In this document: positions 1 through 4,335 of the stretch, piece by piece
Position numbering within the stretch: position 1 is the stretch's first letter
Layout of the letters: every line of letters starts with the position of its first letter
From: Shigella phage SGF3
Sequence record: MN266305
DNA length: 5,386 nt
Direction: 5' to 3' (one strand)
Translations under genes and position numbers: made by a program
Notes under the pieces: model-generated
Seen by the model: the letters and a program-made list of their open reading frames with translations, nothing else
Told to the model about the DNA's origin: nothing
Database searches by the model: none

Positions 1-269
1 ATGCGTCCAAGAAGTTCAAGATTGCTGAGGGTCAATGGTATCGCTATGCACCGTCTTACGTTTCTCCTGCATATCACCTCCTTGAAGGCTTCCCATTTAT
101 TCAGGAACCGCCTTCTGGTGATTTGCAAGAACGTGTTCTTATTCGCCATCATGACTATGACCAGTGTTTCCAGTCTGTTCAGTTGCTGCAGTGGAATAGC
201 CAGGTGAAATTTAATGTGACCGTTTATCGCAATCTGCCGACTACTCGTGATTCAATCATGACTTCGTGA
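1..269 (+). CDS. F: Major capsid protein F, 3' portion (continues from 4372..5386 across the circular junction; first codon spans 5386,1,2; stop TGA at 267-269)
   Basis: Frame 3 translates without stops to ...GNASKKFKIAEGQWYRYAPSYVSPAYHLLEGFPFIQEPPSGDLQERVLIRHHDYDQCFQSVQLLQWNSQVKFNVTVYRNLPTTRDSIMTS*, matching the phiX174 F C-terminus as I recall it. 1015 nt + 269 nt = 1284 nt, the phiX174 F length. Confidence 0.93.
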   Translation, partial: ASKKFKIAEGQWYRYAPSYVSPAYHLLEGFPFIQEPPSGDLQERVLIRHHDYDQCFQSVQLLQWNSQVKFNVTVYRNLPTTRDSIMTS

Positions 270-300
270 TAAAAGATTGAGTGTGAGGTTGTAACGCCGA

Positions 301-328
301 AGCGGTAAAAATTTTAATTTTTGCCGCT
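301..328 (+). repeat. AT-rich imperfect inverted repeat (hairpin) in the F-G intergenic region; position matches the phiX174 primosome assembly (PriA/n') site and the TF terminator region
   Basis: agcggtaaaaatt (301-313) pairs with aatttttgccgct (316-328) with one G-T wobble; the non-coding spacer 270-379 lies between the F stop and G start. Confidence 0.6.
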
Positions 329-379
329 GAGGGGTTGACCAAGCGAAGCGCGGTAGGTTTTCTGCTTAGGAGTTTAATC

Positions 380-907
380 ATGTTTCAGACTTTTATTTCT
401 CGCCATAATTCAAACTTTTTTTCTGATAAGCTGGTTGCCACTTCTGTTACTCCAGCTTCTTTAGCACCTGTTTTACAGACACCTAAAGCTGCATCGTCAA
501 CGTTATATTTTAATCAGTTGACGGTTAATGCAGGTAATGGTGGTTTTCTCCATTGCATTCAGATGGACACATCTGTCAATGCCGCTAATCAGGTTGTTTC
601 TGTTGGTGCTGATATTGCTTTTGATGCCGACCCTAAATTTTTTGCCTGTTTGGTTCGTTTTGAGTCTGCTTCGGTTCCGACTACTCTCCCGACCGACTAT
701 GATGTTTATCCTTTAGATGGTCGCCATGATGGTGGTTATTATACTGTTAAGGATTGCGTGACCATTGACGTCCTTCCACGTGAGCCGGGCAATAATGTTT
801 ATGTTGGTTTCATGGTTTGGTCTAACTTTACCGCTACTAAATGCCGCGGATTGGTTTCGCTGAATCAGGTTATCAAAGAGATTATTTGTCTCCAGCCGCT
901 TAAGTGA
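380..907 (+). CDS. G: Major spike protein G (175 aa)
   Basis: ATG at 380 preceded by AGGAG (368-372, 7-nt spacing). Protein [19 protein letters not shown]...[10 protein letters not shown] matches phiX174 G with roughly 9 substitutions (from memory). The ORF-track start at 335 is an unsupported upstream extension. Confidence 0.93.
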
Positions 908-1940: not shown

Positions 1941-1965
1941 GCCTCCAAATCTTGGAGGCTTTTTT
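1941..1965 (+). terminator. Stem-loop plus T6 tract (rho-independent-terminator-like, TH position) that also contains the gene A Shine-Dalgarno
   Basis: gcctccaa (1941-1948) / ttggaggc (1952-1959) form a perfect 8-bp stem with a 3-nt loop, followed by tttttt (1960-1965) and then the A start codon. GGAGG at 1954-1958 sits inside the 3' arm. Confidence 0.7.
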
Positions 1966-3507
1966 ATGGTTCGCTCTTATTACCCTTCTGAATGTCACGC
2001 TGATTATTTTGACTTTGAGCGCATTGAGGCTCTTAAGCCCGCTGTTGAGGCTTGTGGCATTTCTACCCTTTCTCAATCTCCGATGCTTGCCTTTTATAAG
2101 CAGATGGAAAACCGCATCAAGCTCTTGGAAGAGATTCTGTCATTTCGCATGCAGGGCGTTGAGTTCGATAATGGTGATATGTATGTCGACGGTCATAAGG
2201 CTGCTTCTGATGTTCGTGATGAGTTTGTATCTGTTACTGAAAAGTTAATGGATGAATTGGCACAATGTTACAACGTGCTCCCCCAACTTGATATTAATAA
2301 CACTATAGACCACCGCCCCGAAGGGGACGAAAAATGGTTTTTAGAGAACGATAAGACGGTTACGCAGTTTTGCCGTAAGCTGGCTGCTGAACGTCCTCTT
2401 AAGGATATTCGAGATGAGTATAATTACCCTAAAAAGAAAGGTATTAAGGATGAGTGTTCAAGATTGTTGGAGGCCTCCACTATGAAATCGCGTAGAGGCT
2501 TTACTATTCAACGTTTGATGAATGCAATGCGTCAGGCTCATGCTGATGGCTGGTTTATCGTTTTTGACACTCTTACGCTGGCTGATGACCGCTTAGAGGC
2601 GTTTTATGATAACCACAATGCTTTGCGTGACTATTTTCGTGATATTGGTCGTATGGTTCTTGCTGCCGAGGGTCGTAAGGCTAATGAATCACATGCCGAC
2701 TGCTATCAGTATTTTTGTGTGCCTGAGTATGGTTCAGCTAATGGCCGTCTTCATTTCCATGCGGTGCATTTTATGCGGACACTTCCTACAGGTAGCGTTG
2801 ACCCTAATTTTGGTCGTCGGGTACGCAATCGCCGCCAGTTAAATAGCTTGCAAAATACGTGGCCTTATGGTTACAGTATGCCTATCGCAGTTCGCTATAC
2901 GCAGGACGCTTTTTCACGTTCTGGATGGTTGTGGCCTGTTGATGCTAAAGGTGAGCCGCTTAAAGCTACCAGTTACATGGCTGTTGGCTTCTATGTGGCT
3001 AAATACGTTAACAAAAAGTCAGATATGGACCTTGCCGCTAAAGGTCTAGGAGCTAAAGAATGGAACAACTCACTAAAAACCAAGCTGTCGTTACTTCCCA
3101 AGAAATTATTCAGAATCCGAATGAGCCGCAACTTCGGGATGAAAATGCTCACAATGACCAACCTATCAATGGAATGCTTAATCCAGCTTACCAAGCTGGG
3201 TTACGACGCGACACCGTTCAATCAGATATTGAAGCAGAACGCAAAAAGAGAGATGAAATCGAGGCTGGCAAAAGTTACTGTAGCCGACGTTTTGGCGGCG
3301 CAACCTGTGACGACAAATCTGCTCAAATTTATGCGCGCTTCGATAAAAATGATTGGCGTGTCCAACCTGCAGAGTTTTATCGCTTCCATGACGCAGAAGT
3401 TAACACTTTCGGATATTTCTGATGAGTCGAAAAATTATCTTGATAAAGCAGGAATTACTACTGCTTGTTTACGAATTAAATCGAAGTGGACTGCTGGCGG
3501 AAAATGA
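1966..3507 (+). CDS. A: Replication initiation protein A (513 aa), HUH rolling-circle endonuclease
   Basis: ATG at 1966 after the GGAGG-containing hairpin. Protein [25 protein letters not shown]... matches phiX174 A. HUH motif in [10 protein letters not shown]; catalytic tyrosine pair in [10 protein letters not shown] (codons 343 and 347, nt 2992-2994 and 3004-3006). The ORF-track start at 1927 is an upstream extension. Confidence 0.95.
2284..2313 (+). other. Origin of (+)-strand rolling-circle replication (30-nt ori; gene A protein nick site between G2290 and A2291)
   Basis: caacttgatattaataacactatagaccac is identical to the phiX174 30-nt origin as I recall it, at the same offset (318 nt) from the A start codon. 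Confidence 0.85.
2482..3507 (+). CDS. A*: A* protein (in-frame internal initiation within gene A; 341 aa)
   Basis: In-frame ATG at 2482 ([16 protein letters not shown]...), 516 nt downstream of the A start, the same offset as phiX174 A*. Upstream GGAGG at 2469-2473. Confidence 0.7.
2848..2880 (+). promoter_or_regulatory. Possible PB promoter region upstream of gene B (inside gene A): -35-like TTGCAA (2848-2853), -10-like TACAGT (2872-2877)
   Basis: phiX174 is known to have a promoter for B inside A. The hexamers here are weak matches and my positional recall is imprecise. Confidence 0.3.
3060..3422 (+). CDS. B: Internal scaffolding protein B (120 aa), encoded entirely within gene A in a different frame
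   Basis: ATG at 3060 with AGGAG at 3048-3052. Protein [15 protein letters not shown]...[12 protein letters not shown]; the C-terminal half matches phiX174 B, the N-terminal third is more diverged. Stop TGA at 3420-3422. Confidence 0.93.
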
Positions 3508-3592
3508 GAAAATTCGACCTATCCTTGCGCAGCTCGAGAAGCTCTTACTTTGCGACCTTTCGCCATCAACTAACGATTCTGTCAAAAACTGA
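3422..3592 (+). CDS. K: Protein K (56 aa), overlapping the end of A/B and the start of C
   Basis: ATG at 3422-3424 overlaps the B stop (TGATG). Translates [56 protein letters not shown], matching phiX174 K. Below the ORF-track size cut-off. Confidence 0.85.
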
Positions 3593-3764
3593 TGCGTTGG
3601 ATGAGGAGAAGTGGCTCAATATGCTTGGCACGTTCGTTAAGGACTGGTTTAGATATGAGTCACATTTTGTTCACGGTAGAGATTCTCTTGTTGACATTTT
3701 AAAAGAGCGTGGATTACTATCTGAATCCGATGTAGTTCAACCATTAATAGGTAAAAAATCATGA
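3504..3764 (+). CDS. C: Protein C (86 aa), DNA maturation / switch from RF replication to ssDNA synthesis
   Basis: ATG at 3504 overlaps the A stop (ATGA, stop 3505-3507). Protein [86 protein letters not shown]. 261 nt, as in phiX174. Confidence 0.92.
3691..3720 (+). promoter_or_regulatory. Candidate PD promoter inside gene C: -35 TTGACA (3691-3696), 18-bp spacer, -10 TACTAT (3715-3720)
   Basis: Perfect -35 hexamer and a 4/6 -10. The predicted start near 3727-3729 corresponds to the phiX174 D-promoter start as I recall it (about nt 358 in reference numbering). Confidence 0.6.
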
Positions 3765-4219
3765 GTCAAGTTACTGAACAATCTGTACGTTTCCAAACCG
3801 CACTGGCTTCTATCAAGCTGATTCAGGCCTCTGCTGTTTTGGATTTAACCGAAGATGATTTCGATTTTCTGACGAGCAACAAAGTTTGGATTGCTACTGA
3901 CCGCTCTCGCGCTCGTCGCTGTGTAGAGGCTTGCGTTTATGGTACGCTGGACTTTGTGGGATACCCTCGCTTTCCTGCTCCTGTTGAGTTTATTGCTGCC
4001 GTCATTGCTTATTATGTTCATCCCGTCAACATTCAAACGGCCTGTCTCATCATGGAAGGCGCTGAGTTTACGGAAAACATTATTAATGGCGTCGAGCGTC
4101 CGGTTAAGGCCGCTGAGCTGTTCGCGTTTACCCTGCGTGTACGCGCAGGAAACACTGACGTTCTTACTGACGCAGAAGAGAACGTCCGCCAGAAATTACG
4201 CGCAGAAGGAGTGATGTAA
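3761..4219 (+). CDS. D: External scaffolding protein D (152 aa)
   Basis: ATG at 3761 overlaps the C stop (ATGA). Protein [34 protein letters not shown]...RQKLRAEGVM appears identical to phiX174 D (from memory). Confidence 0.96.
   Translation: MSQVTEQSVRFQTALASIKLIQASAVLDLTEDDFDFLTSNKVWIATDRSRARRCVEACVYGTLDFVGYPRFPAPVEFIAAVIAYYVHPVNIQTACLIMEGAEFTENIINGVERPVKAAELFAFTLRVRAGNTDVLTDAEENVRQKLRAEGVM
3939..4214 (+). CDS. E: Lysis protein E (91 aa), MraY inhibitor, encoded within gene D in the +1 frame
   Basis: ATG at 3939. N-terminal transmembrane segment MVRWTLWDTLAFLLLLSLLLPSLLIMFIPSTFKRPVSSWKAL is conserved with phiX174 E; the C-terminal tail differs (…KRTSARNYAQKE). 276 nt, as in phiX174. Confidence 0.92.
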   Translation: MVRWTLWDTLAFLLLLSLLLPSLLIMFIPSTFKRPVSSWKALSLRKTLLMASSVRLRPLSCSRLPCVYAQETLTFLLTQKRTSARNYAQKE

Positions 4220-4335
4220 TGTCTAAAGGTAAAAAACGTTCTGGCGCTCGCCCCGGTCGTCCGCAGCCGTTGCGAGGCACTAAAGGCAAGCGCAAAGGTG
4301 CTCGCCTTTGGTATGTAGGCGGTCAACAATTTTAA
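4219..4335 (+). CDS. J: DNA-binding / packaging protein J (38 aa, highly basic)
   Basis: ATG at 4219-4221 overlaps the D stop (TAATG), with AGGAG at 4206-4210. Translates MSKGKKRSGARPGRPQPLRGTKGKRKGARLWYVGGQQF*, matching phiX174 J. Confidence 0.9.
   Translation: MSKGKKRSGARPGRPQPLRGTKGKRKGARLWYVGGQQF

Follow-up and report, generated by a model that had tools for sequence, protein, structure and literature searches.

The + strand segment between positions 1,966 and 3,592 of the genome of Shigella phage SGF3 (sequence record MN266305) is almost certainly the canonical early-gene block of a microvirus of the phiX174 species: a single segment that, on our reading, uses all three frames and encodes five proteins, A, A*, B, K and C. 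The arrangement is that of the textbook overlapping genes of phiX174, and as such it is already known. It was described with the first sequenced DNA genome, has been known since 1977, and is the founding example of its kind.

The window, i.e., the whole stretch of 5,386 nucleotides that was analysed, is a complete genome of the phiX174 group of microviruses in circularly permuted form, as established by full-length nucleotide comparison. Phage records matching it over at least 80% of its length number 161, and the best full-length identities include those to Salmonella phage PJNS001 (99.4%), SP14 (97.3%), coliphage WA4 (97.1%) and phiX174 itself (95.6%). In ICTV practice a species takes in genomes with about 95% or more genome-wide nucleotide identity. 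On this measure the window falls within Sinsheimervirus phiX174, with phiX174 at 95.6%, a value close to the threshold, and with WA4, ID34 and NC1 at 96-97%, all of them filed there. Its taxonomic place, judged from sequence, is Microviridae, Bullavirinae, Sinsheimervirus, phiX174 species group. Coordinates convert to the standard phiX174 numbering without gaps over the A-to-J block (window = standard - 2015, or standard + 3371 past the numbering origin). The comparison set comprised 18 annotated relatives from three genera, namely 12 phiX-clade genomes, three of the G4 clade and three of the alpha3 clade; junctions and frames were compared directly in the window and seven annotated genomes (phiX174, the three G4-clade and the three alpha3-clade genomes).

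Genes and junctions of the block

Gene A, coding for the rolling-circle replication initiator, an HUH endonuclease, occupies 1966..3507 (+), from an ATG at 1966 to a TGA ending at 3507, and is translated into 513 aa. In phiX174 this protein starts and closes rolling-circle replication. The product matches the Pfam family Phage_GPA (PF05840; 3.7e-61, 207 bits vs a cutoff of 31.4), displays the HFHAVHF and YVAKYV motifs, and is 97-99% identical in amino acids to the A proteins of the phiX clade. Mechanical ORF calling over-extends the gene upstream to a TTG at 1927; the annotated start in the relatives is the ATG at 1966. At 1941..1959 (+) lies a terminator-like hairpin with a T run, the T_H of phiX174, whose 3' arm holds the Shine-Dalgarno sequence of gene A (GGAGG, 1954-1958); the same overlap of T_H with the ribosome binding site has been described for phiX174 (10.64898/2026.07.25.740675). 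The phiX174 P_A transcription start (standard 3962, annotated in J02482) maps to position 1947 of the window.

The coding sequence of A also holds the + strand origin that its protein cuts: ahead of the A* start, at 2284..2313 (+), the 30-nt phiX174 origin CAACTTGATATTAATAACACTATAGACCAC is matched exactly, and its nick site (standard 4305/4306; rep_origin 4306 in J02482) maps to G2290/A2291. A* itself (2482..3507, +) arises from an in-frame internal start in A and corresponds to its C-terminal part (341 aa; Phage_GPA, 4.1e-46). The proposed restart is there: an ATG at 2482, in the same frame as A and 516 nt (172 codons) downstream of the A start, with a GGAGG at 2469-2473, 8 nt upstream of the ATG.

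Gene B, for the internal scaffolding protein, lies at 3060..3422 (+), contained entirely in A and A* but read in frame +2 relative to A, and the ORF list and a scripted check agree on this placement. It encodes 120 aa that match Pfam Phage_B (2.1e-49), and its start is preceded by an AGGAG Shine-Dalgarno sequence. Gene K follows at 3422..3592 (+) in frame +1 relative to A. The first base of its ATG is the last base of the B stop, and the gene spans the A stop and the C start, sharing 86 nt with the end of A and 89 nt with the beginning of C. The frame runs without a stop codon or frameshift, and the leucine-rich protein of 56 aa that it encodes matches Pfam Protein_K (3.3e-41, 56/56 residues covered) and is 100% identical to phiX174 K. 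That K has to be found by hand is borne out, since an ORF list made with the default 60-aa threshold misses it, and lowering the threshold to 30 aa brings it up. Gene C, for the DNA maturation protein, occupies 3504..3764 (+; 86 aa) in the same frame as B, and its ATG overlaps the A/A* stop as ATGA. Reading of the sequence and the scripted check both give the start at 3504, whereas the mechanical ORF of C over-extends to a GTG at 3486; the product matches Pfam Phage_C (1e-50). In phiX174, B is the internal scaffold, and C switches replication to single-strand synthesis and packaging.

Downstream are gene D, for the external scaffolding protein (3761..4219, +; 152 aa; Pfam gpD, 2.8e-98), which starts on the C stop and stops on the J start, and, nested in D in another frame, the lysis gene E (3939-4214, +; 91 aa; Pfam Microvir_lysis, 5.7e-22). 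Gene J, for the DNA-binding protein (4219..4335, +; 38 aa; Pfam Microvir_J, 1.7e-16), starts on the D stop. For each of A, A*, B, K, C, D, E and J, the Pfam score exceeds the gathering cutoff by a wide margin.

The initial annotation had proposed this nesting of A, A*, B, K and C, and every start, stop, frame and coordinate in it proved exact by sequence reading, by the ORF list and by the scripted check; its gene names, given by analogy to phiX174, agree with the Pfam families and with the ungapped map to phiX174, and no observation speaks against them. Direct reading likewise bears out the junction strings: the B stop meets the K start in TGATG (3420-3424), the C start and the A stop share ATGA (3504-3507), D starts on the C stop in a second ATGA (3761-3764), and J starts on the D stop in TAATG (4217-4221). 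These stop/start overlaps at B/K, A/C, C/D and D/J measure 1 or 4 nt, and bases 3504-3507 serve all three frames. The description of the boundaries as minimal overlaps holds for such junctions but not for the coding overlaps, which are long (A/B 363 nt, A/K 86 nt, K/C 89 nt).

The architecture is also stable among relatives. The frames relative to A (B 2, K 1, C 2) are the same in the window and in the seven annotated genomes compared, as is the overlap of K with exactly the last 86 nt of A. All 12 phiX-clade genomes keep A, A*, B and K intact; breaks are confined to C and D, and consist of a nonsense codon in C in one laboratory isolate and of an artefact at the end of the SP14 record that breaks both genes. 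The ATGA overlap of A and C is kept in the phiX and G4 clades, and that of C and D occurs in the phiX clade and ID2 only. A regular expression for GYF-stop-ATG, run over all genomes, hit a false look-alike site in gene H in PJNS001 and SP14; these two rows were left out, and the true junctions of both genomes come from the phiX-clade comparison.

Translation initiation and transcription

How would ribosomes reach so many starts on one stretch of RNA? The predicted anti-Shine-Dalgarno energies divide them into two sets. Gene A and A* (-9.3 kcal/mol each), J (-8.3) and B (-6.5) all rank in the top 8% of the 148 ATGs of the + strand, and the sites of A and A* in the top 3.4%. The values for K (-3.3 kcal/mol, 28th percentile), C (-4.2) and D (-3.7) are unremarkable, and the starts with these weak sites are exactly those that sit on the TGATG and ATGA overlaps.

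A and A* would be translated from the P_A transcript, each by independent initiation driven by its own Shine-Dalgarno sequence, and B would initiate on its own site as well, mainly on P_B transcripts begun inside A. As for K, C and D, their weak sites taken together with the stop/start overlaps suggest translational coupling: these genes are probably fed largely by ribosomes ending B, A/A* and C, respectively, through termination and reinitiation, which would tie the output of K, C and D to that of B, A/A* and C. In phiX174, the expression of C fell once the A/C and K/C overlaps had been removed (10.1101/2020.06.10.143693). J has a strong Shine-Dalgarno sequence and so need not be coupled. D, for its part, cannot depend on termination at C only, because in phiX174 it is a very abundant protein.

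Transcription offers landmarks of its own. The phiX174 P_B start (standard 4899, J02482) maps to 2884 (+), inside A/A* and upstream of B. A simple scan found no sigma-70 consensus at this position, so that P_B is placed by coordinate transfer only. Further along, a P_D-like sigma-70 promoter, TTGACA-18 nt-TACTAT (3691..3720, +; 10/12 matches), lies inside C and upstream of D. We take this to be the position expected for phiX174 P_D, which starts near standard 358, or 3729 in the window.

Which open frames are genes

An open frame inside another gene may simply be an accident of composition. Chance was gauged with 5000 synonymous-codon shuffles of A that kept its protein and its codon usage, and the answer differs between the two alternative frames. 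Stops are frequent in frame +2 of A, with 60 in 514 codons, but precisely at B there is an open run of 121 codons. None of the 5000 shuffles reached an ORF of at least 78 aa in this frame, where the longest ATG-initiated ORF averages 18 aa, so that the B ORF is clearly far beyond chance. Frame +1, in which K lies, has only 22 stops; it is stop-poor because third codon positions are 39% T, and ORFs of at least 78 aa arise in it in 55% of shuffles. The share of shuffles with a K-like ATG-initiated ORF spanning the A stop is 2% for the window, 4% for G4 and 26% for alpha3 (P of about 0.02-0.26). The length of K alone is thus not significant evidence, and K rests on homology and on published experiments. 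An earlier form of the statistic, in which ORF length was pooled over both alternative frames, made B marginal (P of about 0.1); it was replaced by the per-frame split, under which only B is significant, and highly so.

The substitutions tell a related story. The B ORF is open in all 18 relatives. Within the phiX clade, 27 of the 37 changes in the A/B overlap replace an amino acid of B but leave the A protein unchanged, and the divergence of B from its phiX174 counterpart (89% identity) falls mostly at the third codon positions of A. Between the window and G4, the A/B overlap retains 90/120 identical residues in A, 66/120 in B (39/60 in its C-terminal half) and 63/119 in the non-coding frame. 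In the A/K overlap the corresponding counts are 20/28 for A, 20/28 for K and 16/28 for the non-coding frame, and in the K/C overlap they are 21/29 for C and 14/28 for K. Per-frame identity in the overlaps is dominated by A and C, with B and K only slightly above the non-coding frame save for the C-terminal half of B. Selection on B acts mainly in keeping the frame open and in preserving this C-terminal half, and K is under little constraint of its own.

Could K, then, be no functional gene in this phage, its frame persisting through the stop-poor, T-rich composition of frame +1 and through the constraint on A and C? We consider this unlikely, while granting that the shuffles make ORFs of its size expected by chance, that identity in its frame barely exceeds that of the non-coding control, and that in a saturation mutagenesis of phiX174 the nonsense and missense variants of K carried no fitness cost (bioRxiv 10.64898/2026.07.25.740675). 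Openness across genera is insufficient as evidence for K and was set aside as such, since two unannotated ORFs of the same frame in A, taken as controls, are likewise open in all three genera. What speaks for a gene is of another kind. The one-base overlap of the K ATG with the B stop is found in the window and in all 18 relatives from the three genera (as TGATG, or as TAATG in ID21); the alpha3 clade has a 27-nt gap between A and C, which K crosses without a stop although nothing else constrains the sequence there; and a QELxLL..EL.R motif is common to the K proteins of all three genera. The protein has, moreover, been detected in phiX174-infected cells (PMC8125068). In phiX174, K is non-essential, which fits the little constraint seen on its sequence, and it is reported to raise burst size, which argues for a function. 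We thus retain K as a functional gene of the block.

The two control ORFs, at 1931-2248 (105 aa) and 2606-2842 (78 aa), raise the converse question of whether the A region holds more overlapping genes, with one of them as a twelfth, conditionally expressed gene; if true, this would add another layer to the region. We give the idea next to no credence. Neither ORF is interrupted by a stop in the G4 or alpha3 clade, and the 2606 ATG is conserved, but this ATG is forced by a conserved Tyr-Asp of A (TAT GAT), the frame is stop-poor by composition (22 stops vs 60 in frame +2), and neither ORF has a family match. Of 82 conserved cryptic ORFs in phiX174, Jaschke et al. knocked out 71 at once and saw no gene-specific defect, and the only peptides that they detected from the cryptic ORFs belonged to one of 23 aa; the remaining 11 of the 82 could not be disrupted, which leaves some room for the idea (PMC6883844). 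Composition explains the persistence of both ORFs. A doubt of the opposite sort attaches to A*: is the ATG at 2482 merely an internal methionine of A, with no separate product? The alpha3 clade would allow it, for there the aligned position is a Glu, no Shine-Dalgarno sequence is found at that place and no A* is annotated in the records, and in phiX174 the A* protein is non-essential. We nevertheless hold this to be very improbable. The site of A* is predicted to be as strong as that of gene A itself; the phiX174 and G4 clades share its Met and its GGAGG even though the A protein has diverged by 32%; and in phiX174, A* has been quantified separately from A by targeted proteomics (bioRxiv 10.1101/2020.06.10.143693). 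There, too, a role has been described for it: A* binds the double-stranded template and hinders the Rep helicase, thereby holding synthesis and packaging in step (PMC13386984). A* is accordingly kept as a product in its own right.

Annotation value and known relatives

The discovery value of these findings is small, because the phiX174 block has already been dissected by genetics, proteomics, synthetic "decompression" and saturation mutagenesis. Expression checks of the kind that the initial annotation had suggested, i.e., ribosome profiling or mass spectrometry of infected cells, are already published for the type phage phiX174. All 11 of its proteins have been quantified by mass spectrometry during infection (PMC8125068), experiments have shown its set of 11 annotated genes to be complete (PMC6883844), and once its overlaps had been removed, C and B fell, A* rose and the burst size dropped from about 145 to 16 (10.1101/2020.06.10.143693). 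The production of A*, B and K during infection has thus been shown for phiX174, and by analogy the three would be made in SGF3 as well.

The practical value lies in annotation. Automatic pipelines miss these genes: the GenBank record of PJNS001, annotated with RAST, lists 7 CDS only and omits A*, B, K and E, and the SP14 record likewise lacks these four. K and J fall below a 60-aa ORF cutoff and so go unlisted, and mechanical calling over-extends A and C. A more general lesson concerns T-rich genomes, in which one alternative frame, that of K, is open for free; length and cross-species openness there are therefore weak evidence of coding. The same openness in the frame of B is strong evidence.

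What distinguishes the block of SGF3 from those already known? With phiX174 (J02482) it shares the genome length of 5386 nt, the gene order, starts and stops that map 1:1, identical junction motifs and an identical ori 30-mer, and the proteins are 100% (K), 99% (C), 97.5% (A) and 89% (B) identical. The differences amount to an overall nucleotide divergence of 4.4%, a rotated record, and a detail at the K stop, where the window reads TGATG at 3590-3594, with an extra ATG on the stop, and phiX174 reads TGACG. The nearest record, PJNS001 (PQ479934.1), has every gene intact, and its K and C proteins are identical to those of the window; it differs by 33 substitutions, of which 23 are clustered in 2229-3260 within gene A/B, a cluster that may be a recombination patch.

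Similarities extend to the other two genera, with the appropriate departures. The G4 clade (Gequatrovirus: G4, ID12 and ID2) has the same nesting and frames, a B of 120 aa and a K of 56 aa, TGATG at B/K and ATGA at A/C, and overlaps of 86 nt (A/K) and 89 nt (K/C), all as in the window. Identity to the window is 68% for A, 55-57% for B, 57-61% for K and 64-67% for C. Its members depart from the window in an A that is 41 aa longer in its N-terminal part and, in G4 and ID12, in a C/D junction that does not overlap (TGAAATG), whereas ID2 has ATGA. The alpha3 clade (Alphatrevirus: alpha3, NC3 and ID21) stands further apart, its A being only 40% identical to that of the window. B still lies inside A in frame +2, and K, still beginning on the B stop, covers the final 86 nt of A and runs into the beginning of C. 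Here, however, 27 nt separate A from C, and K is the only reading frame across them; K measures 53-62 aa, C measures 68 aa, and C and D are set apart by an intergenic gap of 26-73 nt.

Differences from the nearest relative

The 33 substitutions that separate the window from Salmonella phage PJNS001 (PQ479934.1), its closest relative, are far from evenly spread: 23 of them fall at 2229-3260, within gene A and the A/B overlap, i.e., in 19% of the genome (binomial P ~4e-10). As for their effect, 17 of these 23 are silent in A, four alter B only, and two alter A only. Some of the alleles in this cluster are private to the window, others are private to PJNS001. The cluster could be a recombination patch, or it could reflect evolution that is locally faster.

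Start sites and open frames in gene A

Mechanical ORF calling places the start of A at TTG 1927 (526 aa), upstream of ATG 1966, and that of C at GTG 3486 (92 aa), upstream of ATG 3504; in contrast, the annotated starts of both genes in the relatives are the internal ATGs, at window positions 1966 and 3504. In the record of phage SP14 (PP501405.1), A is annotated over-long.

Gene A also contains two unannotated frame +1 ORFs, at 1931-2248 (105 aa) and 2606-2842 (78 aa), and both are free of stops across the G4 and alpha3 clades. Across A, stops number 22 in frame +1 versus 60 in frame +2, and these two ORFs stay open because T-rich third codon positions deplete the stops of frame +1.

Another point concerns the A* ribosome-binding region, where a perfect 10-nt palindrome, GGAGGCCTCC, occupies 2469-2478. 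Its left half is the A* Shine-Dalgarno sequence, GGAGG, with which the right half, CCTCC, could pair in the mRNA only via a longer-range fold.

Records of the relatives

Seven CDS are annotated for PJNS001 in GenBank; A*, B, K, and E are not among them, despite all four being intact in its sequence. The annotation tool named in the PJNS001 paper is RAST. The SP14 record has only six annotated CDS, and its taxonomy line classes this microvirus under Caudoviricetes. At 5513 nt, it exceeds the relatives by 127 nt, which lie at the record ends and, once the record is circularized, break C and D. A simple terminal duplicate is ruled out as the source of these extra bases, with matches at 30 of 127 positions. 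In the phiX174 laboratory isolate AP100 (EF380009.1), gene C is cut short by a premature stop, and it is annotated at 133..369 versus 133..393 for the unshortened gene.

A second TGATG at the K stop

A further TGATG is found at 3590-3594, where ATG 3592 overlaps the stop of K and opens a 36-aa ORF (3592-3702) inside C. Both the motif and this ORF are probably due to chance. The arrangement resembles the B/K junction of the window; among the relatives, only PJNS001, alphaalpha, and ID1 share it, whereas phiX174 and the remaining relatives have TGACG in its place.
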